From positions 4,963,181 to 5,027,180 of the forward strand of contig OZ316895.1 in the NCBI GenBank assembly GCA_973895155.1: DNA of 64,000 nucleotides, read 5' to 3'. Source of the DNA: Marsupella aquatica. Lineage: Eukaryota > Plantae > Marchantiophyta. A model generated the notes under the pieces. That model ran no database searches. It was not told the origin of the DNA and was given only the letters and a program-made list of their open reading frames with translations. Both the position numbers and the translations under genes were made by a program. This document shows positions 25,438-59,600 of the stretch, in pieces. Each line of letters starts with the position of its first letter. Within the stretch, counting starts at the first letter, position 1.

Positions 25438-26789
25438 TGTCGTGACATATAGTATCGTAGCCATAGTGTATCGAAAAATACAAGTCACCGGCAAGGCATA
25501 TGTGCAAGCTGCTAGCAACCAACATGCATAGAAAAAGTCCCATCACATTTACAAGTGCCAAGAAAAAGCAAATGAGGTGGTATGTAGTAGTGGAGGTGTA
25601 AACCTCTGTATATAAAAGGCGTAAGAGAAACAATTGTACTGAAATCGAATCGAAAACTGGCAGGATGCCAAGATCGGTCGGGAGCATCTAACGAATCACT
25701 GTGTGAATCCCGTGTACAGAATCGACGAGCACTGTTTGAGCTCTGTCAACAACGATTCAAGAAAAACTGAAAACCAACAAAGAAAGACATGCCCTAAGCA
25801 AGCAAAGTCCTGGCGTCACACTAACAAGCACATTTGCTTCAAGAACGGCCCAGACTTGCTACAAGAACATGTCGCTAACTCAGGTAGTACACTAGCCCTA
25901 ACGGCCCCATTCACAATTGGGTGTACCTCGTAGGAACCACTTTCAGGACTCAAAAACATGCTTTTTTAGTGAAAAATAACTTTCGTAACATGGAAAAAGG
26001 TTCATCATGATTTTATGTCAAGACATTTAAGTCTAATTTTTTCACAAGACTATTTTACATGGCGTAACCTACCTCACCATGTAGATACATCAAGTTTTCA
26101 ACTATTTTAAGGGATCCTTTTATTGATGGCCCTAAATAAGCCAAAATTACTAATTATTTTTGTCCTATACATAAAGATTTAGTGTGTGTCACTATTTAAG
26201 TTTTGAAATATAAGATTATGCTATTAGTATGCATGCTTTGGTAAAATTTCATTGTCTAAAATGCATTTTTTAGAGTCCTTTTGAGTCCTGAAATGATGTG
26301 ACCCATTGCGTGACAAGTTCTTTTATCAATCTTTGAAGGACATATAAAGAAAGCTTCAAAGTCTCAAATGCTAGATAGTTTAATGAATGTTACCAACCTC
26401 TAGGATGTTTATTAAGTATAGTACATCAAATTTTCTATATCATCTCCTTACACCCTAAAAATGATATCCTAAAGCATAATAAACTATGGTCACTTTTGAG
26501 TGTGACGTTCCTTTTGGGTCCTCCAATTGTGAATGAGGCCTAACTACATACCTAGCAGGCATGCGAGGGACATGCCAATGTGCATAAGAGGCACTGTCCC
26601 TCGGCATGACAGCTGTCGTGACATATAGTATCGTAGCCATAGTGTATCGAAAACATACAAGTCACCGGCAAGGCATATGTGCAAGCTGCTAGCAACCAAC
26701 ATGCATAGAAAAAGTCCCATCACATTTATAAGTGCCAAGAAAAAGCAAATGAGGTGGTATGTACGTAGTGGAGGTGTAAACCTCTGTAT
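25438..26789 (-). repeat. 3' split-repeat block B1-GC-A2-B2 of copy A2
   Basis: 25438-25611 repeats 26614-26789. 25612-26611 (minus the MITE) repeats 45202-45558. Junction TGACA-GC-TGTCG at 26607-26618. Confidence 0.92.
25903..26540. mobile_element. 638-bp AT-rich MITE (PIF/Harbinger-like) inside repeat A2
   Basis: 18-bp TIR GGCCCCATTCACAATTGG / CCAATTGTGAATGAGGCC (1 mismatch). Flanked by TAA(C) on both sides. Absent from the other A segments. Confidence 0.85.
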
Positions 26790-31103: not shown

Positions 31104-33923
31104 CATCCAGAGCAGGAGTCCATGTAACTGGTGCGCTCAAGATTGGGGCTATTGGCTGTCCATTGTGCTGCCCAAGGTCTTCAAACTTGCGCAATGCAGC
31201 CACCAAAGATCCATGGGCTGCTTGGAGCCGTTGTACCACCTCTGGTTGATGATCCACGTTGCTGGAAAGTGCTGCTATACGTGTAGCAGCATGTGCAGCA
31301 ACCACCTCATCGTCATCCTCCTCAATCCAATCCTGCAATGGGTGGTTGACATAGGTAGCTGTGTGCACTGCTTTCAACACACAGTGGTGAGCCATAGGTG
31401 TATGGGCACCATGCAAATCAAGTGGAATGTAGCCCAAGTGTGAGCCATCAGTATGCCAATCAACTCTGTAGTATGCATGCTCATGCCAGTTGTCAATGGT
31501 AAAACCTGGTGGGAACAAAGCCTCCTGGCCAATGAGCACATCATACGTAGTGGCATTGGTAACCAAACATCTGACTGGGAAATGCAATTCCTGATCTGTA
31601 CCTCCATTAAAAGTGAGAGTGAGTAAAGTAGAACTCTCACCCAGCACATCCTCCACAGTGCCACTAGCAGTCCAAATATGCTACCTGGATTGCTATAAAT
31701 GATCAGTCAGCAGTCCCATCTTCTTGGCAAACTGAATGCCCAATATCACTGGTTGAGCGCCTATGTCTAGCATGACCACCTGAGGAGTGTGACCCTCCAA
31801 CTTGACCGCTGAATTCCTGTTATCAACAATGGCAATGGTGGTGGAAACTGAAGTCTTGTCGCTAGGCACCACTTTTGGCAGATGATGAGGTACCTTGTGA
31901 AGGGAGTTAGTATCCATGGTCTTTCCACTCAATAGCATAGTCAGGAAAGATGGAGTAGCATGAGCAGAATCCAGTGTAGCTCTGGTCACACAATCTGCAG
32001 CAATACTATCATCGCTACCACTGGAAATTGGTACTGGGATAGCCAAACCAGTGGAAGCATGTAATGGAGAAGAAGAAGGTCCAGTATGTACATGAGATTG
32101 GACCTCCAAAACCGGTGTCACAGGGGCTGATGAAGAATGCAGTGAGCCCTCTAGCGCTCTGATGACAGCTCTAGCATCCAGCTGTAAATCATGGCAACTG
32201 AAAAGTGGAGTTGTAAGAATCCTTTGTGCCATACCGGAGGTGAAATGCTCAAGCAGCTCAGGAGAAACAACTCCCTGTGAAATGTCAGCAACACCTGGTG
32301 GTGGAATGGATGTAGCTGTAGCTCCCTCCCCCCTTGCCAACAAGGTGCGCTCTTCAGCAAGTGTGAGTGGCTGAAAGGATTGGGGCATGACAGCCCGAGC
32401 TCCCCTGGCTCTAGTCATAGGACCAGCAGCAAGACCATCATCCTGTACAATGCGGCGGGTGGGAGCAGTACGGGAAGCAGCACTGGCCTGCTGGTAAGCA
32501 AAATAGGAAGGGCAGAATGAATCTGAAAATTCTGCCGTAAGGCCAGGCTATGTAGCAGAGGACAACACACACTCACCCATATGAGCATCAAATGGCAAGC
32601 CATAGAAAGAGCGGGGTAGAGGTGCTGAACTGTCAGTGGTGCCTGAGCCAGGGATGGGTTGCACGTGACCAGCCGGTTGAGAAGGACCAGCAGAGGCAGT
32701 TGACTTGCCTTTGATATTGGCAAGTTGGGCACGTAAGGACTCAACCTCATGAGTTAGAGATTGAAGTTGAGTTGCCTGTGCATTGTGAGCCTCCTTCTGA
32801 GCTGGTTACTTCTGTTGCTGCTTGGGCAATTTGTTGGCACCAGGTGCTTTGCCATTGGAAGGAGGAGCAGTTGATGCAATAGGAGCCCTCCTAGCTGGTG
32901 GGGGAGTGGAAACAGGAGCAGGATGAGTGGCCTGTTGTCGTAGCTGCTTCCTCTCTGGGAATTTGGCAAAACAAACTGCTTCCAAGTGACCCACTTTCCC
33001 GCAAAAATCACAAGACAGATCCTCAACAACAATATCACATTCATTAGCCTTGTGATTGGGGTTACCACAGTAGTTGCAAGATGGCAGCATGAAAGCAACA
33101 TGTGCTGGCTTGGTTTTGGAACCGTATGGTGGCACACGGGAAGGGGTGGCCAATGTAGGGGCAGCAGCCTGGTACCTGGATCGCGGTGGACGCGCAATAC
33201 TGGCCTCATAATGTGCATGGGCCAACTCAAGTTTGTCAGTAGTGTCATAGACATTGAGCAATGTGTAGCTGTCTCCAAACTCTGAGAATACTTGCTGCAA
33301 CACTTGCGAATGGAGAGCTGGTGTGCCCTCCAATGCACGAAGATAGCGATGCGCAGCCTCCAGGTCAGTGATGCTCTGGGTGTCCTCCTTCAGCTTGAGA
33401 AGCCGGCGATACATCATCTTCAATGTTTCATCGCGTTGCCTCACAAAGGTAGCCAACTGCATGATTTTGGCAGCACTCTTGATTGGGAATTCCAATTCAA
33501 GAACCTGGAAAAACTCAGCCATTGGATCAGCAAAGGCAGGAGAATCAATAGTGGGAGAAATGCCTGATGTAGCCTGTGCCAAGACAGTGGGAGTTGTCAC
33601 ACCATTCTGAGTAGTGTAGTAGTATATCGTGCTATTAGAGTATGTACGTTTGGTATGAGTGCTATTGGAGCCGATAAGGTTCTGTCAGGTTTGTGTGAGA
33701 GGGTACTTCTCACTTGTGAGGCATTGAAAGGTCATCTTTCAATGTTGAGCCTTGGAGAGAGAGGAGCTTGAGTGTGGCTATGGTGGCTGTGAGCTCCGCT
33801 TGTGTAACGTGGATTCCTTGAGTAGTGCAAGGTGCGTTGGCTTGACATACATGTGTGATCGGATCGGTGCGGGATCGATGGGGTATTGTTGACCGAGATC
33901 GTTGTGCCGATTGTATGGAGATT

Positions 33924-33935
33924 ACATTGAAAGAT
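33924..33935 (+). promoter_or_regulatory. Putative self-priming primer-binding site of element B
   Basis: ACATTGAAAGAT directly follows repeat A1 and is the exact reverse complement of ATCTTTCAATGT at 33734-33745 inside A1. There is no TGG-type tRNA PBS. Confidence 0.7.
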
Positions 33936-36900
33936 CACATTCGAAATCTGTTGTACGGACTGTGCGGACAGAAGTTCGATTGATTGAGTTGTCGACGGTT
34001 CGTGGTAGCTCGGATCGTGTGTTGTTATCGAACAGATTGTTGGTATCTTGACCTGTATCGTTGTTGTCCGATCGGCCTGCTTCCCGATCGATGTACAAAT
34101 CTGTGATTGGTGACAGGTTTTGAGTTGGAGGTCGATTGATGATTCGTGGAGGAAAGCGAATGTTGAGTAGATGTTGGACAGTGGAAGTCGATCCGTGAGG
34201 CTTCAGATCCGATTGCCGGCTACTGTGAGGCTTCAGATCTGATTGTTGGCTACTGTGGGGCTTCAAATCTGATTGCCGGCTATTGTTGGACGATGTTGGC
34301 AAGGCGCAGGTGAAGCGATGGCTCTTTTCCTGAAGGAACGGAGCTGCCAATGCCCCGTGCGACGGTATCATCATTTCAGTGAAAGAAACGAGGGTCAAGG
34401 GTGTTGAATCAAGCTGCTGCCAATTCTGTGGAAGGGCTGCGTTTTTCATGAAGGAAATCAACAGTTTTCGGGAGCTTTTCGTGAAGGAAGTAGTCGTTTT
34501 TGGGGTTAGGTGTGAGGCGCACGAGGTCACCCATCCCGAAAGTGCTCACGCGAGGCGACGCGTGAGGTCACCCATCCCGAAAGTGCTCCCAACCGCGAGC
34601 GCGAAGTCACCCATTGCGAGCGCAGGCAGGCGTGAGGTCGAGGTCACCCATCCCGGGGCTATTCCGGGCCGTGAGCGCGAGGGGAGGCACAAGGTCGAGC
34701 GCGAGGAGGTCACCCATCCCGGGGCTATTCCCAGCCGCGAGCGCTTAACTGGCAAGTTCTCATCCCACCTTGTGTACACACAAGCTTTGACAACTTGTTG
34801 TTTAGATTCAAGCGCCAGGGGGCTTTATACACTTCCCGGTTTGTTTAGAGGCCTATTCTAGGCCAAATCAGAGGCTGTTTGAGGGTTTTTGATACTTCTG
34901 AGTCCATCTAGACTCACAGATTGAACCAATTTTGCCTTGGTTCTCATCTACAACATTGGAGTGCCATTGTGAAGCCTATTATGAAGGCTCTTCCTTGAAC
35001 CTTATGCACATTGTCATATTGATTTGCATTTGCTTTTGTGTGGAGAGTTGAATGGTATCCATTCTTGTTTCTGGATCCTCTTCACACATGTTTCCTGTTT
35101 ATGCGCCATGTTAGTTTCATGTGGGCGCTTGATTCCATAGGAGTGATCCGGGTTTGCAACTGGACATTCTAGTGTGCTGTGTATTTCTCTCTTGGTGATG
35201 TTGGAGTGATGCCCAACACACCATGGTGAGTGCTTGTGGTGCTGACAGGGATAGATTGCCCTTAGGGTTAGCACATAGATTAGGTTAGGGTTGGTCACCA
35301 CGGATTCTTCTGGTGCTGCTGGATTACCCGATGGACGACGGACCGGTTTCACTCGGAGTGGGGCACAGTTTCGGCCAGCGGCATTGGTAGCAGTCAGCAG
35401 TGCAGCTTCAGACAGTGATTCTGATGAGGACTCAGTGACCAGTTCTCCTCATCATCAGGTGGTTGCACCTTTGTTGTGGGATATGGACGAGATGTACGGG
35501 GCTACAAAGGGCCCACGACGATACTCTGGTGCAGTTGGCACAATTGATCTGGATGACTTCATCCAGGAGTTTGATACGTGGTGCGATATGCAGACATTGC
35601 GTAATGTCACGTTGTTTACCCCTTTCATGGCATGGAAGGGATTATTCCAACATTTGGAGGGGCCACCCATGGATGACTACCATGAGTTTCGGAAGGCTCA
35701 TTTGGTTGAGATTGAGGCATGGAGGCAGCATTGGTCACCTAATTACGTGTCCATCACCTATGGCACTAGTGTGGCTGCCCAACCAATTGCCACAGCTGCT
35801 GCTTCTTCTAGCAGCACTAGCCAGAGTGGCACACCATCCACCAGCAGCACTCCAGCAGCATCCACCACTACTCTTGCCGGTGTGATTGTGACAGGAACTA
35901 GAGTTGCGCCAGCATTTAATCATGTGGTGGAATTCTTTGAGGTACTGAAGCAGAACTATCAGGGTGTGAGAACTGATAAGTTGAAGGGTCTTCAGGAGTT
36001 CCAACGCAAGACTGGAGAAAGCCTACGTGAGGCATACACACGTATGCGCAGATTGATCACTGTCACCAAGGGAGTGACAGAGGCTCAGGCAGTCCAATTT
36101 TGGTATGCAATTCTGGACAGAGAATTGCGACGCAGAGTGAGAGATGTCACTCTGCTTAGGGATGCAGATCCCACATTAGCAGTTGTTTTCACCCTTTCTG
36201 AGCGCATTGAGCTCAATATGGTGAATGAGAAGGTGGTGACTTCCGAATTTTCCAAGGAAGCACCAAAGGCTGCATCTACATCCACACTAGAAGCCTACTG
36301 CACGAGAGTCTACCAGCCAGAGACCTGTGCCCTCTTATGTTGGATAGCAGTCAGGATGTTGGACCTGTGGTGGGGATCATGCACAGAGATATTGTCCAGA
36401 TCATAGAGGATCAGGGGGAGCATCAGCGCCTGATCAGCGACAGTGTGATCACTGTGGAGCTCCTGGACACACCAAGGATAGGTGTTTCTCACTCCACCCT
36501 GAGTTACGGAGAGGAGGATCCCGTACACATGATCAGGGAAGAGGAGGAGGAGGTAGAGGTGGTGGACGTGGTCGTGGCATGCCACATGCAGGGAGACAGG
36601 GAGGTGACGCTACCCCTACTGTAACCATAGATCCAAAGGATGCTAAGATTGCTCAATTGGAGCAACAACTAGCTGCCATGGCTAGTTCCCAGGTGAGACC
36701 TAATTCTGGTGATGGGGCATCTACATCCTATGGACCTTCCACATCCCATGGTCCTTCCACATCTTATGGAGCTGATGGAGACCTTGCCACCATGGGATTC
36801 ATGTATGGCACTGCACATATTGATGCATCAGCAGCTTTGACACGTGGGGCAGCCAAAGCTCTTGAGCCCCGAGGAGCAGTAGTGGAGTTAGATCCACAAA

Positions 36901-38117
36901 GGGGGGATGCACGTCGGCAGACAAAGCTTCCTCAGTCTTTTACATTGTCAGAGACAGTTCAGACTGCCTCTATGAACCCGGTTCGGACAAACCCTGATGT
37001 GGGTAAGTTGGCAAAATCAGGTAGTGATGCAGCAGGGATGACAGGTACCTTGCTGGGGGCGGCTACTGCCATAGTACGCACCCCATTATTTTCAGCGACA
37101 GACATGCTGAACTTGGGAGTTGGTCCTGCAGAAGTGTTCAGATTGGCAGCTACACTCTGTGAGGACACTCCAGTGGTTGCTTCCCATGCAGAAGCAATTT
37201 GCAGTGTTGATGCAGTGAAGACCATGCCACCTATTGCTACTAGTGAGACATGGCATGCAGCAACAACGAGGTTGGTGGATTTACCAGCACGCCCTGCATT
37301 TGAGAGGACTAGGTTTAAACCTAGTGTTGTGTCATTGGATAATCGGAGTGGTATCTTCCGATTAGTTGGGCCTTCTGGAGCAGTATACCAGCTAGAGAGA
37401 GTGTTATTGGATACTGGTGCTCAGCCCTTGATGTTGGGGAAGTCTGCCATACGTGGATTGGGATTGCGTCCAGAGGATTTGGAGGATTGTCCCTTTCCCA
37501 TTCAGACTTCATTGGGGGGACCTACACCTACACAGCATATCACCAGGAGACCACTTGATTTGAGGATTCAGGAAGGTCATACCACAGATAGCTCACAGAT
37601 ACAGGCGCGAGCTATTCTGACTAAGGCAGAGTCATATGATGTGTTGGTGGGATGTACAGTGCTCTACCCCATGGGATTTATTCTTGATTTTTGGGAGGAA
37701 TCAGTGTCATATAGACCTGATTGGCAGTCAGGAGATGCTCGATTGAGCAAATTGCCAGTGAGATTTAGTGGACCTATGGGAGGCCCTAAATCCACACCAT
37801 TGTCTTTGGCAGCATTCAGTGGTGTAATTGCTGGACCTGATGATTTGATTGAGGGTAATACGCATGCAGCCGATGTTCCACCATTGGAGGAGTCTCATGA
37901 GGAGCACATCATGCGAGGATTACCTGTTGGCAATGTTGTGCCACCAGTGTGGGGCACTGCACAAGCCTTGCCACAGGCAACAGCACGATTGGTACATGAT
38001 GCATGGCGTCATGCTTTTACACCACAGTCAGGAGCAGAGCAGTCTCTTGCAGATGGACCTGTGACTCTTTCACCATTGGATACCACTCCTATTGCTTGGC
38101 AGTATCCACCGGAGGGT

Positions 38118-39060
38118 ATTTGTTGGTTGGATCTTTTTGGTGGGATTAGCACTGGATTGGCTGCTATTCTTCAGGCAGGAATTCCTGTGCGTCGTTATTT
38201 GTATGTGGAGACAGATGAGACAACACGGAGGGTCTCATTACGACATGTGGCTATGTTGGTGGATAGATATCCACAGTTGCTGCCAGTGGATGCTGTTCGT
38301 GGTTATCAGCATGCACTACCTGCTGATATTTCATTGTTGGGGGCGGATCATCTACATCGTGTTGGCCCCATTGATTTGGTGATTGCTGGTTGGCCATGTC
38401 AGGGCCAATCTAGAGCTGGCATTGGGCATGGACTTCATGATCCATGCTCTGCATTGTTTTGGGAGATGTTACGGGTGTTGCGTCACCTCCAGCTACATCA
38501 GACACAGTCTCCAGCATACATTTTGGAGAATGTGCCATTGTTAGGTGATGATCGTAGTCGGATTGTTGCCAGTGTTCACCAGGTGAGGTCTTGGATTGGA
38601 CCTGCTGTGTTATTGGATGCTGCATGTGTGGGTTCTCGTGCACATCGTCCACGCTTGTGGTGGACTAATTTGATCCCATGTGAGGTGCTGAAGCGTGCAT
38701 TTGACAGCATTCCACGCTCACCAACCTTAGTGGTGGATAATATTTTGGATCCAGGGCGTCGTGCACAGGGTGTGACCCAACCTGATAGACCTCCATTGGC
38801 AATGGTCAATGCAGTTGGGTGCCCACGTTGTGCATTACCCACTCTTGTTAGCCACTCTACTTCATATGCATTCAGAGCAGGTGGCCCTGGACTTGTATGG
38901 GACACAGCTCTCCAGCAGTTAGTGGAGCCTACTGCTGATGAGAGAGAGCGTGCTATGGGATTTTTGACTGGCACCACTGCAGTTGCCTCTGTGTCAGAGG
39001 GTTTGCGGCGCCAGGTTCTTGGTCAAGCAATGGATTTGAATTGTTTGACTTGGATTATTA
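38118..39060 (+). other. DNMT3-like C5 cytosine methyltransferase domain of element B (uninterrupted)
   Basis: WLDLFGGISTG (I), YVETD (II), VIAGWPCQG (IV, catalytic PC), YILENVP (VI), AHRPRLWWTN (VIII), ERERAMGF (IX), RRQVLGQAM (X). Confidence 0.92.
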
Positions 39061-42000
39061 GCTTGGGAGTAGCTGAACAGTTGCGGATGCGCTCTGCTGG
39101 AATTACTGATTGTCCCTTGGTGAGCTTGCGGTCCACTGAGACAGTATTCACCACAGCTGGGGGCGAGCAGACAGTCCATGGACCTATGACAGGATTGGCG
39201 GCTGGACAGACTGTTGAGCAGGAAGGGACTACTCAATCTACTACTAAATAGCAATCATCGGCTATCTCTTCTACCCTACAAAGAGATATTAGGGATTTGG
39301 TGGAGAGTTGGGAACCACAGCTTGGCCCTAAGTTAACAGGGGAGGAGAGACGTTGCATGCATCGATTCCTGAAGAGTTATTGGAATTGTTTTGCATTCAG
39401 CATGAAGGATTTGGGGACATTGAAGGGCCCTGGTATTCAGATTGAATTGGCTAGTGATGCGCCAATCTTTCATAGACCATACCGTTATAGTGACATGGAG
39501 AGAGCTCTGATTCAAAGCAGAACTCAAGATTTGTTGGAGGCTGGATTGGTGGAGATTTCATATGGGGAGTATGCATCTGCCACAGTGATGCTAGCCAAGA
39601 AGGATGTGCAAGGCAATTACACAGATAGGCGCATGTGTGGTGATTATAGACCTATTAATCGCCAGACAAAATCTGATCGATATGCCATGCCCACACCTGA
39701 GGAGATCTTTGATGCTGTGGGGCATGCAAAGGTTTTCAGTTCATTGGATCTGAGGGCAGGATACCATCAGCTTCCAATTAGGCATGCTGACAGGTCCAAG
39801 ACAGCATTCTAGGGGATTGATTCTTATGGCAAAGATCGTTTGTATCAATGGTTATTCTTACCATTTGGGTTGAAGAATGCACCAGTTGAGTTCCAGAGAG
39901 TCATGGATCAAATCATTGCAGGTTTGGATTTTGTTAGATGTTATATTGATGATATTTTGGTCTATTCTTCTACTGTGGAAGAACATCAGCAGCACTTGCA
40001 GACTGTGTTGGAGAGATTGAGAGCACATGGGTTGAAGCTCCATCCTAGCAAGTGTAAGTTCTTCCAAGACCAGATTGAGTATTTGGGCCACACCATATAC
40101 CCAGGGGGATTGGGTGTACAGCAGACTAAAGTGGAGGCCATTACACAGATTCCTTGTCCTACTGATGTGAGTAGAGTTCGTGCATTCTTGGGATTGGCGA
40201 GCTACTACAGGAGGTATGTTAAAGGATTTAGCCAGCTTACTAAACCTTTGACCATACTCACTAAGTTGGATCAGGAATGGATTTGGGGTGATGACCAGGA
40301 GCATGCCTTTCAGGAGTTGAAGCAAAGGTTGGCATCATCCCCTATTTTGAGAAGACCCATTTCAGGCAGACCATTTCAGCTACACACTGATTGGAGTGGA
40401 GTAGGACTTGGAGCAGTGCTGACTCAGAAGGATGATGAGGAGAATGAGTTTGTTGTGGCTTATGCCAGTAGATCAAACAATTCAGCAGAGGCTAAGTATA
40501 GCTCTTATGAGGGAGAGTGTTTGGCAGTAGTGTGGGCTGTTGCACACTTTCGTTGCTACTTGTTTGGTAACCCCTTCACCTTGATCACTGATCATCAGCC
40601 TCTTAAGTGGTTAATGGAGTCTGACAAGCTTACAGGGAAGCTTGCACGATGGGCATTGTTGTTACAGGAGTATGATTTCCAGGTGGTGCATAGGCCTGGA
40701 AAAGTGAACTTGGATGCAGATGGATTAAGCCGCAATCCATGTACCAGTCAGCAGGATGAGACTGGAGCCAGATGGCATGATGAGTCAGATAAGGAGATGG
40801 TGCCAGGATGGCATGCATCTGCCTTTCTTTGTTGGGTGCCAGCATACAGTGGATCTATGGACTCTACTTCATTGGATGGAGTGGGTGATGAGTCTTCAGA
40901 TGTGGATGTTGGTGAGGTAACTTCTGGACAACAAGATATTCACAATGATGTGAGAGTGTTGGAATATCTGCGCAATAGTTCTATTGTTGGCAGTGTTGAT
41001 GCCAAGGAACGTGACAGGGTTCTACAGAGAGCCAAGAGGTTTCGATGGGAGGGAAACCATCTTTTGAGAGTACTGCATGATGGTAGGATGTTGGTGGTAC
41101 CAAAACCATCACAACGAGTACATTTGGTGCGACATGCGCACGAGGAGTTGGGTCACTTTGGTGTGAAGCGCACTTACAGCTTGCTGCAGACGCAGTATTG
41201 GTGGCGTGGTATGCACACTCATGTCCAACAGTTGATAGCTAAGTGTGTGGTATGTGACAGAGTGAGAGCATCATTTAATGCTCCCACTCCCCAGTTGCAC
41301 CCGTTATCGATCATGGGTTTGGGATATCGTTGGAGTTTGGATTTTGCTGGTCCATTACCTCTTACCCAACGTCATAATCGGTATGTTTTGGTCATGGTGG
41401 AGCACTTCTCCAAGTGGATTGAGCTAGTGGCGTTGCCAGATAAAGCCAGTGGAGGAGTTGCTGCTACATTTTTGGATCGTGTACTCAGTCATTTTGGAGC
41501 ACCAGCTGAGGTGTTGACTGATCAGGGAACTGAGTTCCGTGGAGAGTTTGAGAGTTTGTGTGAACAAGCTCTGATTGATCATCGCACTACCTCTTGTGAT
41601 CATCCTGAGGCAGATGGATTAGCTGAGAGAGTTGTGCAAACTGTGAAGAGAGGATTGCGTAAGTATGGCTTGCAGGTTGGTCATCTGGGAGATTGGGATC
41701 TCCAACTACCTTGGTTAGCTATGGGCTACCGTTTCAGTCGGCAAGCATCACTTGCATCCTTCTCACCCTACTTTTTGCTCTATGGTAGAGAGCCAGATTT
41801 GCCAGCAGCTATTCGTCGTCATGCTGCACTAGTTGTGAACTTGGATGATCCTGATGTTTGGGTCAAGGTGTGTTCAGAGAGAGCACGGGTATTTCAGAGA
41901 GTGATGCCCATGGCTTTTGACAACCTTGCCATTGCCCAACATCGTGATACTTTGAGGTATGCCACTATTCGTGGAGGAGGTTACCGTGCAAGCATTCGAC

Positions 42001-42236
42001 GATTTCATCCTGGTGATTATGTTTATTTGCAGCAGACAGCACCCACGACACTTGATGTGACCGCAGGCCGGATAATCTTACGTGTGCGTGAAGTGTTGCC
42101 TTCTGGTGTCCTGATGTTGGAGGGACGCGATGGTATGGTTTGGAAGGATCATGTGCGCAACTGTGCACCATGTCACCTTCCCAACATTGATGGTACAGTA
42201 GATCCAAGCTTGGCACATGTTCGTGCTGGCTTGAAA

Positions 42237-42377
42237 TGTATGTTGTGTGGATCTGCTCAGGGAGCAGCTACTATGTTGATTTGTGATAAGTGTTCTAGAG
42301 GATGGCACATGTCATGTTTGACACCACCATTGCAGGTGATTCCTAGTGGATCATGGTTGTGTCCTCAGTGTCGGTGA
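42237..42377 (+). other. PHD finger at the integrase C-terminus of element B
   Basis: CMLC...MLICDKCSRGWHMSCLTPPL..IPSGSWLCPQC, a C4HC3 pattern. Confidence 0.92.
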
Positions 42378-42550
42378 AGCCGACTAGTTATCATTTGTGT
42401 TCTCTTGGCAGATATGGATTGCAGGTAGGTGATCGATGGGGCTCACTTGCACCCGGCCTCCTGATCTTCACACCTAAAAAGGTGTATATCAACCTTGTAG
42501 AACTCATGGCTAGCTAGAGTTAGAGGACCTTACTCCCAGCTAGGGGGGCG

Positions 42551-43157
42551 ATTGTGGGTTTTGGACATGTGTGGACATGAGTTCCACTTGTATTCCATTC
42601 TCTTGTATTTGTGATGTGGCAGTGTGACTATGTCTGGATGTATGTGACAAGCGATGTATGTTGTGTAGCGATATGTATGCGCACGACAGCTGTCACACCA
42701 TTCTGAGTAGTGTAGTAGTATATCGTGCTATTAGAGTATGTACGTTTGGTATGAGTGCTATTGGAGCCGATAAGATTCTGTCAGGTTTGTGTGAGAGGGT
42801 ACTTCTCACTTGTGAGGCATTGAAAGGTCATCTTTCAATGTTGAGCCTTGGAGAGAGAGGAGCTTGAGTGTGGCTATGGTGGCTGTGAGCTCCGCTTGTG
42901 TAACGTGGATTCCTTGAGTAGTGCAAGGTGCGTTGGCTTGACATACGTGTGTGATCGGATCGGTGCGGGATCGATGGGGTATTGTTGACCGAGATCGTTG
43001 TGCCGATTGTATGGAGATTATTGTGGGTTTTGGACATGTGTGGACATGAGTTCCACTTGTATTCCATTCTCTTGTATTTGTGATGTGGCAGTGTGACTAT
43101 GTCTGGATGTATGTGACAAGCGATGTATGTTGTGTAGCGATATGTATGCGCACGACA
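42551..43157 (+). repeat. 3' split-repeat block B1-GC-A2-B2 of element B
   Basis: The 138-bp B1 (42551-42688) equals B2 (43020-43157). The 329-bp A2 (42691-43019) equals A1 (33595-33923), with about two substitutions seen by eye. Confidence 0.95.
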
Positions 43158-45189
43158 GAGTAACTGGCGCAGTGGTAGGAACTGGAGTAGGAGGGGAAGT
43201 AGTAGGAGCAGCAGCATGGGCTGCAATGGCATTCTGTAATGCCAGTTGTGAGGCAGCTGCAATTGCACTAGCATAGGGAGGATTAGGCAATTGTGTGACA
43301 GCAAGCAACCGTTGAGAGTGCTGCTCATACACATCGAAAGCCTCATGGTGCACATACCTGGCTAGCTGCTTAAATGCAAAAGCATTTGTGAAATTGCTGC
43401 CGTACTTCAACTCCAATTTGTAAATGATAGTGTAGAAAGTGGATTTGAACTCACGCAAAGAAACAGTGCCTGGCCGCCCACTGAAGCGCTCAATGCGGCT
43501 AGATGAGTGACTGGCATCCATGCTGTATGTCGGTGAAGCTAGAACAATCACTGATGCAAAATTGCCGAGACTCCAATGAAATGGGCACCAACGGTCGTGG
43601 ATCACTCCGTAAGTGGTACCTGGGCGTTGGTGGCGATGAGCTGCTACCTCCCGGCTCGTTTGCTGACATGCTATGTGACAGTACCCAAATTGTGCAAAAT
43701 GTGTAAAGACTAAGAAAACCCGTCACTGTCAAAAAACCGTCAGGGAAAACGGACCCTTAAAACCTCAAATGTACCCGTGTTGTGCTTGCCGGAAAGACCA
43801 TTTGATGTGTATGCCGGGCCCTCACCGTGATGCAGATAAAATGTGGTGGCATCAAAGAAATCCGGGAAGAATAGGCCCTTAAACGTGAATAGGCCCCCCC
43901 CACCTTAAGTGTATACACATCCGGGCCCCATTGTGGACCCGGAAACTGCAGCCGGACCGGCCGAGTGTGTATACACGCTCGTGGCACGCTCCCTATGCAG
44001 CGGTAGTCGGAAGGCGTCGAAAAGAGGCGAGGAGGTACTATGACCGGCGAGGGAAAGAAATGGGAGGCAACTCGTGAAGGCAGCGGCCGAGGCGAGGCAA
44101 GGCGAAAAGGAGAGAAGTCGGCAGAAAAGAAACAGGCCCCTCTTAAGTCGAGGGGGAAGGAAGGAAAACGGTCAAAAAAGGGAAAACCGGGCACGATGCC
44201 CTGTGCATTGACAGTCGATGGTGAAGGGCGAGGCAAAAGAAAACCGGACCCTAATTAATTCGGGCCAGCACTTGAGGCGAGGCAGGGCGTTCAGAAAGAA
44301 AGGAGCCCCTGACGTGAGCCCTCCATAGGGCTTCGTGCCCCCCCAATATGAGCTCCCGAATAGACGGGGCTACGAGCTCCCCTCCCCTCCTGAAAGGTTC
44401 TGTGGGCCTCGTGCCCTGGTGAAAGTGTGACTCCCGAGAGAGGGAGTCAAATGTACTCCCCTCCTCCCTTAAATGCTTCATAGGGCCGTGTGCCCTCTCC
44501 TTGCGCTCCCCCCTCCCCTCTTTTAATGCTGTATTGGGCTTCGTGCCCTCTCCTGGCAGTCGCTCCCCCTCCTCCCTGCTTTCGCTTGTACTTGGCTCCC
44601 CCCTGCCCCTGCATTAATGCATAATAGGGCCTCGTGCCCTCTCCATGCTTGTGCCTCAACTTAATCCCCCTTCCCTACTGTGTAATTGTTGGCAACAGGC
44701 GAGGGAGGAAGAAAAATGCCGAAGGGAGGGCGCACGGCCCTATGCGCGACCCAGGGCAATGATGAGCCCCGCATGTGTATACATAGGGGAGGCAGCTCAC
44801 GACGGTAGCTGCGAGGGGAGGCAAAATGAAACGACGGCCGATGACAGAAAAGAAAGAACGGGACCCCAAAGGGTCGTCAAAACGTAAGGGGAAGGGAAGG
44901 TGGTCGCGCTGCGACCGGAAAACACCGAATATGGCCCGAAAAAGGTCGTGGCAGTCAGCAGTCGGCAGCCATAGTCGAAAGCAATTATGGAAGCAGATCG
45001 AGTTGCGGCTGGCAAGAAAAATCCGGGCCCCTTGTTATGTGTATACACTTAAGTATACACATAACACCACCATAAACCCATAACTTTTAACTCAACACTC
45101 CGATGTCCGTCGAAGAAATTGCAATGGCTTCACCAGAAATTGTCGAGATCATCACAAGCAATCTTCTTCCCCTCACCACTATCTCGACG

Positions 45190-47297: not shown

Positions 47298-49361
47298 CTA
47301 TCTTTCTAACAGTCCCTTCACATACACCATGCCCTTTTCCATAAGACCCAATTCTCGTCGAAGACGGTCGATTTGTTCGTCATCCCCTTGGATTATAACA
47401 TCAGTCGATGATTCATCATCAGCTACCACCATCTTTACTTTTATCTGCTCCTTGCGTGATGCCCTTGTCCAGTAATAGAATCCTCTGAGGATATAAAAGG
47501 AGGAAGTTGTCAGAAAGGAGTGCTAAAGAAAATACTTTCCTTGAGAGTACAATTCAGGGCAATTGAAGCTGACAACGTGGGATGAGGTGCAGTTCCCACA
47601 TCCACAATTTACAGGCTCTTTCTCTTCCAGCAAGACTCGGCTATAAAATGCCAAATCGCTCTTATTGATGGATACTGTTGGAACTCTCGTTGCAATATGA
47701 AGCCCCAATTCGAACAAGAAGCCAATGCAGATTTTGAAGAGTGAATTCGTTTGCATAATTTGTACAACTACTACTAAAACGGGGCCAGCAATGGTTTCAG
47801 AAGACTTTTAAACGGCCAGACGCCAGAGTGAAGATAGTATCACGTCTAACCCCGTGAACTTGTTTGTTTTTACGGCACGAAAGGAACATAACCCCGTGAA
47901 CAAAACATCTCGTGTAGAGAAGATGAAGTGTAGGTGTACAATGCAAGGACAAGCTCCAGGCCCTCCAATGGCTCCTACTGTTCTTCTGCGTACCAAAATG
48001 AAAACAAGAGGGTAATCCTGGGAATAGTGACTTACGCAAGAGGGCTGAGAACGGTCAGATAGTACCAGTTCTCTCCGATAGCAGGCGCAGTGATGGACAA
48101 CACCAATGCCACACAACCCAGGCTGACAGCAGTGCAGAAACTCAAAAATGCTGCTTGTCCTCTGCTTGGAACCATCCTCCCCTCGAACCTTCATAAACGG
48201 AGCATAAAAAATGACAGGCTGTTATACAAGTTAGGTACATGCCTCGCTAATTCAACCCACAATAAACTTACTGTAAATACGGGTGCTTTCTGCCAAGAAA
48301 ACTACGAAAATGCATTCTTTCACGGAGTTCTACCGTCTTGGAGACTGTATATACCAGGATACCAAACTTTACAGAGATGCAATTCATTACTGGATGCTCA
48401 CAAAATCTACTGACTGGATTCCTAGAAATGCCCTTACTCACAAGATACCTGCCTTGTCCGCTTCACAGCGATAGAATTGCTAGAAGTATTTGAAGGAACA
48501 GAAAACTGATGAGATCATGGAATTCGATGCACATACGTGACAGTGTCTCCTCTGTCTGCAACTGCGAAGTTATTTCGGGTGAGAGAGGATGTGATTTCGC
48601 CTGCAATTTGGCTGGGAGCCTTTCCTTCGGGTACGGTTGGACCCGGTAATTCAAACGTTTTCTTCACTATCTGCATAGAAGATTGAAAGGGATCAACACG
48701 CTCCGCTGAAACCAAAGAAAAACAGAAAACAATGGACGGCGTTTACACGAAAGTCATTTAGTTCTTCTCCCAGAATTCAAGTCACTACAGAGAGAAAAAT
48801 ACCGAGAGAGTCGGAGAATCTCTCTACCTTAGATTTGGTAGAGCGCTTAACCAGAGACCAAATGCCAGGAACAGATATCACAAACAGACCAAGAGATGTG
48901 TAATAGCTCGCTTGGGAATAACCAGGACCTTCAGCAATCAAGGGGTAAACGATCATGGGGGCAATGCTAAACAGAGTAAATGGCGATTCTGAGCTGCTGG
49001 GAGCATTGTCACTGTCTCGTCGAGCTCCCTCCCCTGCGAAGCTATCCTCCAAATTCAGAGGATCAAAGTCTGCTTCTTCTAATTGTCCTCCGCTCCCGCT
49101 GCCGTTCTGCAGGCTTCCTAGCGCTGTCTCGACCCTTTTCTGTCGAGACGAAATCAGCCCAGCGCAAATCCGACCCACCCTTGGCCCTGGCCATGTTTGC
49201 CTCCCGGCAGACCTTGCACAAGATAATCTCAAAATCGATACCGATGACATGATACCATATTGCCGCTGGGCACGAGAGGGACCGAGCGAATTCCACAGAC
49301 CCTGTCCCTTGACAATGTACAGTTGTGGCACCACCGAGTTGCCCGCCATCGCCATAACCAT
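47298..49361 (-). CDS. CCB1: Cofactor assembly of complex C subunit B CCB1 (chloroplast cytochrome b6f heme ci assembly); exons ~49361-48828, 48670-48537, 48189-48036, ~47484-47298
   Basis: GYSQASYYTSLGLFVISVPGIWSLVKRSTKSK / IVKKTF...RNNFAVADRGDTVT / FEGRMVPSRGQAAFL...WYYLTVLSPLA / GFYYWTRASRKEQIKVKM...EKGMVYVKGLLER*. The N-terminus resembles a transit peptide. GT-AG introns. Confidence 0.92.
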
Positions 49362-52300: not shown

Positions 52301-53671
52301 ATATGACTCTAACTTGTAGCACGTTGGTTTGGGTGCAAAGTTGATTGATTTAAGAGTGGGATCAACATTTTCGTGCAGCTCAAGCCAATGTCAATGGAGA
52401 CATAATGCCTAAGGTCAATTCACATAGCAAACAACCAATATTACTATCATAATGATTCTTCTTAGCACTACATATTGTATTCTATCTTCTAACAATGCAA
52501 GGTCACAAAATTGCCTTGAAACCTTAGAGACAATCAACTGCTGAACTACTCAAGTCATTATATTTGGACTACAGCAGCACCACCTGCCAAGTAGAATCAA
52601 TCTTGGGCCATACTCCCATCCCGGAGCTAGGGAGGGCTCAAGACCAAATACCAGAATCAATCTCAAGATACTCTGTTCCCTAGCACCAGCTCAACTAACT
52701 ACCAAAAACAATTCTAACCTTGTGGGCAATTGCATTAAAGTTCACATTCCTTTGTATTCTTGCCTCATTTTTACTCATCTTAATAATAACTAAAGCAAAA
52801 CCTTTTTACTTCTTTCCCAACAATCATGGTGTACATGGCTCAATTGTTTTTGCAAAACGCCTCCACAAAAGGACTGTCTCCCTTTGAATTGTTGCCCAGC
52901 AGCACCCAACGCTAGGGTAGTTGGGTGGGAAACTAATTTTAGAATATTAATAAACCCAAGGCGCAGTTTTTTGTTTTTTAACGTTAGTTGATTTGGGTAT
53001 TGGATGACACTATACTAGACCACTAAAGTGCCATGGGCACTCAATTTGAGTTGAGAAGAGTACTTTCTCAACTAAGATGAATTGAAAAGTTAACTTTGCT
53101 TTTCTCCTCACTTTTCTCAACAACGAACACTAAGCTTGTTGAATTATGACATCTTCCTTCATGATGATCCAATCATTACTCATACCATGCACACGTAGTC
53201 GACACAATCTCTACGTGGTTCACCTCTTCTCCAAGGCTACGTCCACACGACCACAACAACTTTACTTCACAATAGTCGAACACACAAGCTCTCTCTCTTC
53301 CTCAAGTTGCTTCGTTACAATGAGCAAGCGGGTGAGCAAGCACCACACACCAACGGCTTACACTAGCCCTGGTATATACAAGGTCACAAATGACTAACCT
53401 AACCTTAGCTAAATCCCTAACTGTGGTTAGCCTAAGTGCCGTAACCTATGATTCACTGTCGTGACATATAGTATCGTAGCCATAGTGTATCGAAAACATA
53501 CAAGTCACCGGCAATGCATATGTGCAAGCTGCTAGCAACCAACATGCATAGAAAAAGTCCAATCACATTCCCAAGTGCCAAGAAAAAGCAACTGAGGTGG
53601 TATGTACGTAGTGGAGGTGTAAACCTCTGTATCCCCCCCAGACCACAGTCACAAGGAGGGCTGAGGAAAAG

Positions 53672-56600
53672 TTAGGTGGCATGTGGAGCACAGGAAGGGC
53701 AAAACCATAACCCTTCTGGCACCTAGGTAAGTTCAGGCCACAGGCAGAAAAGATGGTACCCTCCATTGCAATTATCACATAGCAGCATCTGGTCAGCATC
53801 GTCAATTCGCAAACACACTTTGCAAGGGTAGTCCACAGGTGGAATCCAAGTAGAAGTCACAATGGTGGGATCCAGGTTAGGCAGATGACAAGGGGCGCAA
53901 TTCTTGGCATTGTCAGCAATTGTGCGCCCATCTGCCCCTTGTAACTCTAGCACTCCAGACGATCGAATAGCTTTAACCGTGAGAATAGTACGACTGGTAG
54001 AGGTGTCCAGGGTGTCGTTAGCTTGCCGCTGCAAGTACACAAAATCTGCCACATCAAACTTCCTGACCTTGGGCTGAAAAGTGCCCCCTCGTGTGTGTGC
54101 ATAACGCAGTGTGTCCCTATGTTGTGCAATGGCCAAATTCTCCATGGCCATGGGCATAACCCTCTTGAATAGGACAGCCCTCTCAGAGATCACATCAGAC
54201 CAAGTCATAGCTGAATCCAAGTCCACCACCTGAAGCATGTGAGCAGCAATAGCAGAAGGTGGAACTGGGTGACGACCAAACAACAAGAAGTAGGGAGAAA
54301 AGTTAGACAATGATGCATGTCTAGACATCCTATACCCCATGGCAATGTAGGGTAAGGCCAGGTCCCAAATCCTCCTTGTTTTTGGTGAGGCAAATCTTCC
54401 GGAGACCCTTCTTGCATGTCTGAACCATGCGCTCTGCCAAGCCATCTGCCTGTGGGTGATCTCGTGATGTCCGGCGATGATCAATGAGGGCCTGATCAAG
54501 CAGCTCCTGGAACTCTCCTCTAAACTCTGAGCCCTGGTCAGTGAGACATTCTGCACAAGCTCCAAAGCGGTTGAGAACTTGTTGCAGGAATGCCTAGCTG
54601 GTGCTACGGGAGGTCTTATCCGGCAATGCCACAAGTTCTATCCACTTGGAGAAATGCTCTATCATGATCATGATGTAGAGATTACCCCGAGATGTGAGGG
54701 GTAATTCTCCAGCCAAATCACATGACCAACGATAAAACATGCCCTGAATAGGGAGTGGATGAAGTGTGGGTTGTCGAGATGTGAAAGAAGTCCTTACCCT
54801 ATCACACTGCTCACACCGGGCAATAACATCTCGAACCTGGCCATGCATGCCTCTCCAATGATAATGAGGGACCAAGAGGCTGTAAGTCCTCTTAACGCCA
54901 AAATGACCAAGCTCAGAATGTACCTTGCGGATAAGGCCAACCCTCTCATGAATGGGTGGAACCACCACTTCCCTATCTGGCAAGCAGCGCACAAGATGAT
55001 CTCCCTTCCACAAGTAGCGCTTGGACCTTTGCTGAATTCGGTCTCTCTGGGCAGCAGTAACATGGGTGGGGTACTCCCCATGCTGCAGAAATCTCAGAGT
55101 GTCGATGTCCTCCCATATGTCCACCACAGGTTGGTCAACAACATAGCATGGCAGCAAAGCAAGATAGGTAGATGCATGAAATGTAGGCAGGATGGAAACC
55201 TGGTCAAAATCCTGTCATGCATCTGAGGAATCATCAGAGGCAATCAAAGGGCTGCGGGACATAGTGTCAGCATTTTGATGTGTCACACCAGGCCTATGAA
55301 TTACCTCAAAATCATACTCCTGGAGTATGAGCACCCAACGAGCAAGCTTGCCAGTAAGCTTGTCGTTGGTCATCAACCACTTCAAGGGCTGGTGGTTGGT
55401 GTAGAGGACAAACCTGGTCCCATAGAGGTAGGGCCTGTAATGTATGACAGCCCACACAACAGCAAGGCATTCACCCTCATACGAAGAATAATGACTCTCT
55501 ACTTGATTGTTGCTCCTGGATGCATAGGCAATGACGTACTCTTTACCTTCCTCATCATGCTGGCCCAGAATGGCACCAATCCCAAGGGCACTCCAATCTG
55601 TGTGGAGCACAAAGACCTTGCTGAAATCAGGTCTTCTCAGCACCGGGTATTCTGAGAGCTTCTCCTTCAAAGTGGCAAATGCTGCCTCAGCATCTGTACT
55701 CCATGTCCAAGTCACATTCTTTTTCAACAAAGCATACAATGGGTGTGCAATGGTGCTGAAATCTTTGATGTAGATCCGGTAGTAATTGCACAACCCAATA
55801 AAACTCCTCAAAGTGTGAACATCGGTAGGAGTGGGCATTTCCAAGATGGATACCACTTTGGCCCAGTGAGCCATGGTTCCATTTGGAAGAATGCGGTGCC
55901 CAAGGTATACTACTGATCTGACAGCAAATTCACACTTCTTGGGGTGTATCTTAAGGTTCACCTTCTTAAGCCTCATGAATAGTTCCTCGAGGTCAAGTAG
56001 ATGCTGGTCAAATCCTTTGCTGTGGACCAACACATCATCAATGTAGCATTTCAGAAACTCAGCACCTTGAAGAACCTGGTCCATGACTCTTTGAAAGAAT
56101 ATGGGTGCATTCTTCAAGCCAAATGGCATCACCAACCACTCCCATAGTTGGTTACTACCATGGAAAGTTGTTTTCTTGCGGTCCTTTGCAAGCAACAAAA
56201 TCTGGTTAAAGCCTTGCCTTAGATCCACAAGAGTGAAGATGTCTGAGTCTCCAATGCTGTCAAATAGCTCCTCTGGCCGTGGCATGGGGTACCTGTCCTG
56301 GGGTGTGACCAGGTTCAGTGGCCTGTAGTCCCCACACATGTGCTTCTCTGTCCATAATCCACTGGAATCCTTCTTTGCTGGCATCACTGTAGCTGCTGCA
56401 AAATCTGATGTAGATGGCTGAATAAGACCAGCTTCATATAACTCTTGGCACCTCTCATCCACCAGCTGCCACTCATGCTTACTCAAACGATGTCTCCGCC
56501 TGAAGATAGGTGTTTCATCAGCCAACTCAATGGAGAACTGCATGGTCTTGCACTTACCCAAGTCCTTCATAGAGAAAACAAACACGTTCTCATGCTTGAG

Positions 56601-59600
56601 GAGCAAATTCAGCAGCTGGTCCTTCTGTCTTTTACTCAGGTGGTTGCCCATGATGAACGTGTAGTTGGCAACACTAGGAATAGGACCTGATGTACTCGTG
56701 CTTGAAGAGCCAGAAGTGCTAGCCTCTCCACTGTCCAAGCTACTAGCATGCTGCTGATAAGGTGACGAGGCCTCGCCAAGGCCTGTTGTATCTGTTGCTC
56801 TGGTCTGATCCACACCATGAAACTCAGAAATAATATCAGCCACGTTACAAGGGACCTCCTCCCCCCCAACACTTGGACTGAAGAGGTGAGTGTTGAATAG
56901 AGGTAAGTGCACTTGGTCTGGATGCCATGTAGTAGCACCATGGAGTGGTAGGGCTGGAACTCCTGATGCTGGATGAATGTACATCTGAAAAAGGATGCAA
57001 GTGACCAGAAGCCAAGTGAGAGCATTAAGATCCATTACCCTGCCAAGTAAAGCATTCCTGGCCAGCTTGGTGATTTTGGTGTGGCATGTAGTACCGGGTT
57101 GGAAGCCCATAGCCCGTTCTCTCTCCTCAGGACTAGGTTCATCCCATGTACCGGTAGAATGTCGGTAAACCAGGCCAGGACCATCACCCTAAAAAGCATG
57201 TGCACCTGGAAAGGACACAAATGTAGGCCAAGCAGCATGGGGCTGTCCAATGGTATTGGCTGGATACCAAGGTGCTGGCTCTTGCTGTGTAACTGGTTGG
57301 CAAGAACTATCAGGATCCAAAATCTGGTCCATTGTGAGGTTAGTGTCCATGGATGTGTGGTGAAGAGCTAACTCCAACAAGGAAGGTGGTGCAAGGTTAG
57401 TCCAAAAGTTACGAAGACGATGTGCATAATAACCACAGTGCACTGCATCAATGAGAAGGGGTGGTCCCAAGTAGTGCTGGACCACACTGAAATCCTCTTT
57501 GACCTGTGGTCGCTGGTCAAACTGAGATGGAGTATTCTCAATGATATAACCAACAGTAGGATAGAGGGATTGAGCCCAGGTGAGAATCTGAACCAATGCT
57601 GTGAAAAGGCCAGAACGAGAATCATACAGTCCAGCACCGTGACCAGCAGCTGAAAACCCTTGGCATTCCCAACCAGCTATGATAAAATCAAGGGAGCCAA
57701 GAAGGGTTAAGTGTCGGTGCTGCATGGACAAGCTGGATATCTAGAGGAAAGAAAGAAAATGCAGACTTCCATGCACTGTGTGGAAACTGCTGAGGAAATT
57801 GCTCTTGCCTTTGCCTTGCACCTGGATCAATATCCACATAGATGTACTGCTTCACCACCATGCCAGACTGTAGGAGAGCTTCCAGGCCTGTAGAAATGCC
57901 ACCAAAAAGCTCAAGCAATGTAAGGCCATCCGGAGCAGGAGTCCATGTAATTGGTGCGCTCAAGATTGGGGCTATTGGTTGTCCATTGTGCTGCCCAAGG
58001 TCTTCAAACTTGCGCAATGCAGCCACCAAAGGTCCATGGGCTGCTTGGAGCCGTTGTACCACCTCTGGTTGATGATCCACGTTGCTGGAAAGTGCTACTA
58101 TACGTGCAGCAGCATGTGCAGTAGCCACCTCATCGTCATCCTCCTCAATCCAATCTTGCAATGGGTGGTTGACATAGGTAGCTGTGTGCACTGCTTTCAA
58201 CACACAGTGGTGAGCCATAGGTGTATGGGCACCATGCAAATCAAGTGGAATGTAGCCCAAGTGTGAGCCATCAGTATGCCAATCAACTCTGTAGTATGCA
58301 TGCTCATGCTAGTTGTCAATGGTAAAACCTGGTGGGAACAAAGCCTCCTGGCCAATGAGCACATCATACGTAGTGGCATTGGTAACCAAACATCTGACTG
58401 GGAAATGCAGTTCCTGATCTATACCTCCATTAAAAGTGAGAGTGAGTAAAGTAGAACTCTCACCCAGCACATCCTCCATAGTGCCACTAGCAGTCCGAAT
58501 GTGCCACTTGGATTGTTGTAAATGATCAGTCAACAGTCCCATCTTCTTGGCAAACTGAATGCCCAATATCACTGGTTGAGCACCTGTGTCTAGCATGACC
58601 ACCTGAGGAGTGTGACCCTCCAACTTGACCACTAAATTCCTGTTGTCAACAATGGCAATGGTGGTGGAAACTGAAGTCCTGTCACTAGGCACCACTCTCA
58701 GCAAATGATGAGGTACCTTGTGAAGGGAGTTAGTGTCCATGGTCTTTCCACTCAACAACATAGCCAGGAAAGATGGAGCAGCATGACCAGAATCAAGTGT
58801 AGCTCTGGTCACACAATTAGCAGCAATCGGTACTGGGGCAGCCAAACCAGTGGAAACATGTAAAGGAGAAGAAGAAGGTCCAGTATGTACATGAGATTGG
58901 ACCTCCAAAACCAGTGTCACAAGGGCTGATGAAGAATGCACTGAACCCTCTAGCGCCCTGAGGACAGCTCTAGCATCCAACTGTAAATCATGGCAACTGA
59001 AAAGTGGAGTGGTAAGAATCCTTTGTGCCATACCGGAGGTGAAATGCTCAAGCAGCTCAGGAGAAATAACTCCCTGTGAAATGTCAGCAGCACCTGGTGG
59101 TGGAATGGATGTAGCTGCAGCTCCCCCCCCTCGCCAACAAGGTGCGCTCTTTAGCAAGTGTGAGTGGCTGAAAAGATTGGGGCATGATAGCCCGAGCTCC
59201 CTTGGCTCTAGTCATAGGACCGGCAACAAGACCATCAGCCTGTACAATGCGGCATGTGGGAGCAATACGGGAGGCAACACTGGCCTGCTGGTAAGCAAAA
59301 TAGGAAGGGCAGAATGAATCTGAAAATTCTGTTGTAAGGCCAGGCTATGGAGCGGAGGACAGCACACACTCACCCATATGAGCATCAAATGGCAAGCCAT
59401 AGAAAGAGCGGGGTAGAGGTGTTGAACTGTCAGTGGTGCCTGGGCCAAGGATGGGTTGCACGTGACCAACCGGTTGAGAAGGACCAGCAGAGGCAGTTGA
59501 CTTGCCTTTGATGTTGGCAAGTTGGGCACGTAGGGACTCAACCTCATGAGTCAGAGACTGGAGTTGAGTTGCCTGTGCATTGTGAGTCTCCTTCTTAGCT

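Follow-up and report, generated by a model that had tools for sequence, protein, structure and literature searches.

An internal palindromic attachment site in the terminal repeat of Ty3/gypsy-type elements, likely cut by their DDE integrase

The 14-mer CACGACA-GC-TGTCA, present in the 64,000-nucleotide stretch of Marsupella aquatica DNA analyzed here (the window), is best read from its sequence context as two element ends joined head-to-head inside a Ty3/gypsy-type terminal repeat, forming an internal attachment site (att) that the DDE integrase likely cuts after CA on both strands. We put the probability of this reading at about 0.72. It also seems fairly likely that the elements represent an old, widespread lineage of LTR retrotransposons in which att has left the cDNA ends for the interior of the LTR and integration takes place only by integrase cleavage of the intact palindrome. 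An internal att with likely cleavage appears to be undescribed, the layout of the clade having been glimpsed earlier, and the integration route is probably new.

The window contains two exact matches to the 14-mer, where 100 shuffles averaged 0.00, at both places named in the preliminary description; at up to three mismatches there was no excess (7 matches versus 6.2 by chance). The palindromic core, GACAGCTGTC, occurs in the window only at these two sites, i.e., in family B at 42682 to 42695 on the plus strand (B-end CACGACA, spacer GC at 42689-42690, A-start TGTCA) and in family A copy A2 at 26607 to 26620 on the minus strand (spacer 26613-26612). Each of the seven element ends seen in the window corresponds to one half of the 14-mer, with TGTCA at the 5' ends (7742, 45558, and 63121 on the minus strand; 33595 on the plus strand) and CACGACA at the 3' ends (25438 and 53457 on the minus strand; 43157 on the plus strand), bearing out the claim that insertions terminate in site halves without the central GC. 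The three window copies with both ends are flanked by exact 4-bp duplications (AGTC, GTGA, and GAGT). A CGA(T/C) motif, discerned by eye 20 nt before the CA end and 9 nt upstream of CACGACA (42669-42672 in the window), occupies the same position at the B ends of families A, S1, S2, and K, the bryophyte-type families. This motif is possibly another point of contact for the integrase, confined to the B side.

Self-comparison of the window revealed four copies belonging to two retroelement families, with coding parts ~67 to 74% alike and with A and B repeats that otherwise bear no clear likeness between families (local scores 10 to 11). The family B element and copy A2 have the same long form, A-coding-B-GC-A-B. 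The former (33595-43157, plus strand) is inserted in copy A2, with its GAGT duplication at 33591-33594 and 43158-43161 and a matching empty site in copy A3. On the plus strand, its 5' A repeat (33595-33923) is identical at 327/329 positions to the 3' A repeat (42691-43019), and its first B repeat (42551-42688) at 138/138 positions to the terminal B repeat (43020-43157), which ends in CACGACA; the end of the 3' A repeat abuts the terminal B repeat, forming what we call the A/B join. Copy A2 (25438-45558, minus strand, duplication AGTC) comprises a 5' A repeat (45558-45202), a first B repeat (26789-26614), the GC spacer, a 3' A repeat (26611-25612), and a terminal B repeat (25611-25438). Its 3' A repeat contains a 638-bp MITE (26540-25903, minus strand) with 18-bp terminal inverted repeats and a target duplication of GTTA (or TTA). 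Copy A3 (53457-63121, minus strand, duplication GTGA) is of the short form, A-coding-B, without an internal att, while copy A1 (1-7742, minus strand) has its 5' end TGTCA at 7742 and runs off the window edge. The window also holds an alpha/beta-hydrolase-NB-ARC-LRR immune-receptor gene with 210-bp LRR repeats (16671-11534, minus strand), of a class known from liverworts, a partial duplicate of its LRR part (8345-9297), a Methyltransf_16 (lysine-methyltransferase) frame (19960-20703, minus strand), and a CCB1 fragment (48777-49361, minus strand).

In four public runs, contigs too short to separate long from permuted forms diverge to mixed flanks just behind 42688 (48, 24, 9, and 16 contigs) and also just before 42691 (5, 3, none listed, and 4 contigs), that is, on either side of the GC spacer. 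Listed records from these runs carry other letters in the stretch searched, and no invariance of the site is claimed from them. Over 42380-43200, family B drew thousands of contigs from runs X1 and X2 (organisms A and B), making it a very abundant repeat in both organisms, depth sums not being taken as copy number; in these runs, five of the nine listed joints end within ~25 nt of the A/B join, and among the 40 of 90 variants listed none fell within 42682-42695. The alternative that the layout arose artefactually, through assembly or recombination, or that an ordinary LTR element lies beside a solo LTR, has a negligible chance of being correct. Some contigs of related elements (L081, L004, and L064) are collapsed cycles, which we did not count as evidence of real circles, but the layout and matching 4-bp duplications are found in both window families and in independent assemblies of others, the ends are sharp in the four public runs, and the artefact and solo-LTR readings are refuted by the duplications that flank complete long forms.

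The coding part of family B follows the Gag, protease, RT, RNase H, integrase order of Ty3/gypsy elements. Its plus-strand frames encode a Gag-like protein (35279-36406; weak Retrotrans_gag match, E 0.016); the Gag C-terminus, a protease motif, and a Dnmt3-like C5 methylase (36348-39251), with a stop before RT; and RT, RNase H, an integrase (H2C2, D-D-34-E), and a PHD finger (39252-42377), with RT broken by a stop at 39810. Pfam matches were obtained for the zinc knuckle, protease, C5 methylase, RT, RNase H, H2C2, rve, and PHD domains, and the best solved relatives are Ty3 Gag-Pol and the foamy-virus integrase, plus DNMT3A for the methylase (E 2e-11). Stops or frame breaks interrupt Pol in every window copy; the catalytic D, D, and E of the family B integrase are all present. 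Among 240 homologues, 198 of the 200 fitting the pattern have the D-34-E spacing, a one-residue gap relative to Ty3 and foamy virus and a departure from the D-35-E of Ty3/gypsy elements. The C-terminal domain is PHD only, with no Chromo match at E up to 1, and no GPY/F motif was evident in it by eye (41103-42374 and the 240 homologues). Neither a tyrosine recombinase nor a chromodomain was matched in any of the 55 frames scanned, the rve integrase being present. Named homologues belong to Calypogeia, Marchantia, Riccia, Sphagnum, Klebsormidium, Haematococcus, Pleodorina, and Tetrabaena. These matches, together with the hydrolase-NB-ARC-LRR gene, point to a bryophyte host.

The methylase is present in 41 of the 47 loci with enough upstream DNA; a match was absent from L064, L084 to L086, and L073, with att kept in L064 and L084. 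The possibility that the methylase is needed to shield att was ruled out, since these last two loci have att without a methylase match, and the enzyme is thus not required for att.

The priming signals of these elements border B at its start and A at its end, and not the TG/CA ends as would be expected of Ty3/gypsy elements. A G6 run directly precedes the first B repeat in both window families (26795-26790 in copy A2, minus strand; a G-rich, polypurine-tract-like run at 42542-42550 in family B, plus strand). In all four window copies the first A repeat is followed by 12 to 14 nt that are reverse-complementary to a segment within A, the sequence of this self-complementary site differing between families A and B. 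In family B, the predicted self-priming primer-binding site (33924-33935, plus strand, 12 nt, directly after A) is the reverse complement of the predicted RNA 5' end and self-primer at 33734-33745 (plus strand); in copy A2 the primer site lies at 45201-45190 on the minus strand. The longest background matches were 10 to 11 nt (853 and 903 windows; 10 nt in the 853). The pairing was predicted in both folds, by the MFE and centroid structures in one and by the centroid only in the other, with z-scores that were not significant. In related copies, 15/17 A ends match the primer site at two mismatches or fewer and a G-run stands directly before B in all long forms examined; two K contigs have inverted matches of 13 and 16 nt. 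At distant loci, a G-run was found 53 to 237 nt before att (7/7), and three of the five loci with enough sequence have an inverted match of 11 to 12 nt some 400 to 450 nt past att, the remaining two having one of 9 nt; with the two K contigs included, matches of 11 to 16 nt are present in 5/7 loci. A self-priming arrangement of this kind, recognized here by complementarity only, is known in Tf1/Sushi and Tcn1 elements (accessible text of PMC6317226).

Standard LTR reverse transcription between the primer site and the polypurine tract would make the LTR B-GC-A, with att inside it. On these signals, the cDNA should have one free end where B starts and the other where A ends, neither with TG/CA. 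Given a 12-nt primer, the A/B join of the long window copies is an exact blunt fusion of the predicted ends.

Related copies were collected with a 37-integrase alignment as the query, taking the best 80 of 532 confirmed metagenome matches and 14 genome-contig loci. The B repeat of families S1, S2, and K was recovered in 58 loci, of which 32 were first classed as long, 24 as short, and 2 as truncated, with L037 later reassigned to the long form; leaving out eight same-insertion duplicates and three K contigs gave 25 long and 20 short independent copies. Long and short copies are interleaved on trees, and no age trend was found between the two forms (S2, p 0.52; S1, p 0.17). The B end of S2 consists of a 16-nt tandem repeat ending in CACGACA (L052:9173-9335; L068:11334-11493), with one unit fewer in single B copies. 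Contigs L081 to L087 were binned into prokaryotic assemblies (cyanobacteria, Halorubrum, and Mollicutes), which is likely contamination. A 4-bp duplication flanks 11 of the 13 related loci with both ends, seven exactly and four with one transition. L048 shows an apparent 8-bp duplication (2445-2462, 11516-11523) and L033 none; these two are possibly non-concerted integrations or mis-assemblies.

The spacer measures 2 nt in 24 of the 25 independent long copies, the exception being L015, with a deletion through att. Its length is therefore as fixed as had been proposed; in old copies its sequence varies, mostly by CWG deamination, with GC in just 8 of 24 copies, AC in 9, AT in 3, GT in 2, AA in 1, and TC in 1. 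AC, AT, and GT are products of CWG deamination, the CWG decay rate being 0.19 to 0.25 per site. In S2, the first spacer base is A in 10/17 copies compared to a CWG decay rate of 0.25 (p 0.003), an excess suggesting that perhaps a perfect palindrome is not required. A tree examined for inheritance of the A spacer contained one supported clade, with 3/3 A-spacer copies (three copies only).

The A/B join, with classes called by eye in copies ~10% diverged, is altered in 13/23 cases (12 if L033 is a substitution; Fisher p 7e-5 versus the spacer). The changes comprise losses of 1 to 7 nt, two larger deletions, and three joins retaining polypurine-tract or primer-site bases (L010, L011, and L037), and several joins sit on 1- to 2-nt microhomology (AT in S2). 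Clear join deletions were seen in just three of the nine copies whose own 5' A is visible. L039 and L042, from one subfamily, have a common duplication in A and different A/B joins, indicating that the join is not inherited; it presumably represents a true end-to-end ligation point.

These data do not support the initial view of the site as a circle junction, because the polypurine tract and primer site predict a cDNA that begins with B and finishes with A and because the end-joining scars sit at the A/B join, 330 bp downstream; att would instead be copied from RNA inside the LTR. The same evidence makes it rather unlikely that the GC site is a circle junction rebuilt as in PAT, Ngaro, and TOC1, in which case the RNA would run from the first A to the last B, B-GC-A would template closure, and the integrase would open the junction. 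Such a cycle would account naturally for the use of a single junction and for the lack of a permuted form (0/18), and the A-coding-B-A-B layout is common to split-repeat DIRS elements (accessible text of PMC5890265), but a polypurine tract directly ahead of B and a self-priming site directly behind A are in the standard positions for cDNA ends, and a join that varies between L039 and L042 is not an inherited one. Microhomology at several joins would also suit a route without any internal cut, in which RT stops or re-primes at att and jumps templates to give a linear A...B-GC-A-B with free TG/CA ends for conventional processing. The downstream att would then be spared. We nonetheless consider this route very unlikely: neither a polypurine tract nor a primer site lies beside att, both strands would have to stop at a palindrome that is copied through elsewhere, and the polypurine-tract and primer-site bases kept at some joins are what ligated linear ends would leave.

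The reading of att as internal to the LTR and cut by the integrase suggests the following cycle. The RNA would have its 5' end within the first A and its 3' end within the second. Tf1-type self-priming, which includes a cleavage step, and the polypurine tract would then yield a linear cDNA, B-GC-A...B-GC-A, with free ends lacking TG/CA. The conversion of this molecule into A...B-GC-A-B with a target duplication implies that the upstream att was opened, its halves joined to the target, and the free ends ligated. Nicking of the upstream att by the integrase would leave two CA-3'OH ends with 2-nt 5' overhangs, both of which would be joined to target DNA 4 bp apart, and host end joining would ligate the free cDNA ends into the A/B join either before integration, as a 2-LTR circle, or after it. 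The short form A-coding-B could result from later B-by-B recombination or from cleavage of the only att in a one-LTR circle, and it would not be copyable again.

The 5' end is visible in 18 copies, at 14 loci and in the 4 window copies; 11 of them are long, 6 short, and 1 unknown. None has the permuted form A-B-GC-A-coding-B, and B never lies upstream of A. The two atts are thus not equally used. A free 2-LTR circle with equal atts predicts as many permuted as long forms, compared to the 0 versus 11 seen (p ~0.001), and an extra assumption is therefore needed. As a guess, the upstream LTR may be the first to become double-stranded and may capture the integrase, so that the downstream att is spared; unequal use might also come from loading at the nearer cDNA end, or appear if permuted copies were lost fast by A-by-A recombination. 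The exact blunt joins in both long window copies, the att deletion in L015, and the aberrant duplications of L033 and L048 are points against the favored explanation.

By analogy with known enzymes, it is presumably the integrase that opens att. The cut geometry put forward at the outset, after CA on both strands, has a counterpart in vitro in the foamy-virus integrase, which cuts a CA-2nt-TG junction and leaves a 5' AT overhang (accessible text of PMC1180852), and copy-out/paste-in transposases integrate from abutted ends (accessible text of PMC7780238). That some other nuclease, of the host or the element, opens att inside the permuted LTR, leaving only trimming and transfer to the integrase, is unlikely. 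Internal cleavage by retroviral integrases is an in vitro side activity, but RNase H and integrase are the only nuclease domains found, a cut exactly after CA on both strands is integrase-like, and the site has been kept in hosts apparently spanning green algae and bryophytes.

This conservation was examined in the 26 loci outside S1, S2, and K by a palindrome scan followed by an exact core search. The exact GACAGCTGTC lies downstream of the integrase in six of them (L044, L074, L077, L083, L084, and L087; integrase identity, 43 to 50%), with 0.27 expected by chance, and upstream of the integrase in none of the 26. L064 has the core with one mismatch. Of the 13 distant loci with at least 1.4 kb downstream, six are without the core, whether exact or at one mismatch; att is decayed in L045, and only the B half is present in L062 and L073, as expected of short forms. 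L056, L063, and L066 end within 1.7 kb, and att lies 0.7 to 3.9 kb downstream in others. Positions G.CA-GC-TGTC are identical in 12/12 family representatives, which were picked on the core. Conservation of the core over very distant families was thus corroborated, the common unit being its 10 bp and not the whole 14-mer as first described. The GC-rich distant loci appear to be algal, and the hosts of the clade are likely mosses, liverworts, and green algae.

To our knowledge, integration in all characterized LTR retrotransposons and retroviruses proceeds from the free ends of linear cDNA, with circles as dead ends. An obligatory junction-cleaving route was put forward for retroviruses in the 1980s and later dropped. 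If our reading is correct, these elements would provide a natural case of an integrase obliged to cut an internal junction, and a plant-lineage integrase inserting uncut or circular DNA through a 10- to 14-bp site; the old question of the circle as precursor would become directly testable with a 10-bp substrate, and a circular-donor integrase with a short att would merit attention in the engineering of plants and algae. The internal-att reading would also explain the DIRS-like repeats of Klebsormidium. LTR finders require paired TG...CA LTRs and are predicted to miss or mis-delimit this abundant repeat family.

PAT, Ngaro, VIPER, and TOC1 use a tyrosine recombinase; the frames scanned here contain none, and TG...CA ends flanked by 4-bp duplications are of the DDE integrase type. 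The A-coding-B-A-B layout is shared with those elements (accessible text of PMC5890265). The closest published counterpart is KnitGypsy-Dnmt3 of Klebsormidium nitens, presented in a figure legend of de Mendoza et al. 2018 as having Gypsy domains with DIRS-like repeats, and like the present elements carrying a Dnmt3-like methylase in Pol (accessible text of PMC5890265). K. nitens integrase-PHD proteins are 52 to 56% identical to those of the window, and by this protein-level comparison both very likely belong to one clade. That account, in the accessible text of PMC5890265 and three supplementary files, uses neither "junction" nor "circular" (0 occurrences each) and states no junction, target duplication, primer site, or mechanism. 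The clade as seen here, in contrast, includes bryophyte-type and alga-type loci, some without the methylase. "KnitGypsy" was mentioned only in de Mendoza et al. 2018, and no published description of the internal-att layout or mechanism was found in a search that had subscription journals, Repbase, and theses outside its scope; the accessible parts of PMC9940879, PMC8557442, PMC6338049, and bioRxiv 10.64898/2026.05.21.726589 describe neither.

With Tf1/Sushi and Tcn1 the elements have in common the self-priming site, the G-rich polypurine tract, and the RT-RNase H-integrase order, and their 4-bp duplication is within the normal 4- to 5-bp range of Ty3/gypsy elements (accessible text of PMC6317226). 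Integrated Tf1/Sushi and Tcn1 copies have two full LTRs with TG...CA ends (same source). Here att lies inside the LTR, a PHD finger stands without a chromodomain match, and the integrase is D-34-E; the TG...CA ends and short duplication of Ty3/gypsy elements are retained, and in place of two complete flanking LTRs there is A-coding-B-GC-A-B or A-coding-B. As in bacterial insertion sequences of the IS3, IS30, and IS256 families, a DDE enzyme would cleave abutted ends in continuous DNA and integrate both, but copy-out/paste-in has no RNA step and its spacer comes from the donor flank and is variable (6 to 8 bp in ISCth4; accessible text of PMC7780238), unlike the fixed, templated GC found here. 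The foamy-virus integrase offers the nearest likeness in the cut itself, a palindrome opened after CA on both strands with a 2-nt 5' overhang (accessible text of PMC1180852), and HIV-1 integrase is likewise reported to cleave the palindromic 2-LTR junction (PMC1905944). In these viruses the palindrome is made by ligation of cDNA ends and its cleavage is an optional route (accessible text of PMC1180852), whereas in the elements described here the palindrome would be encoded in the RNA and its cleavage would be the sole route to integration.
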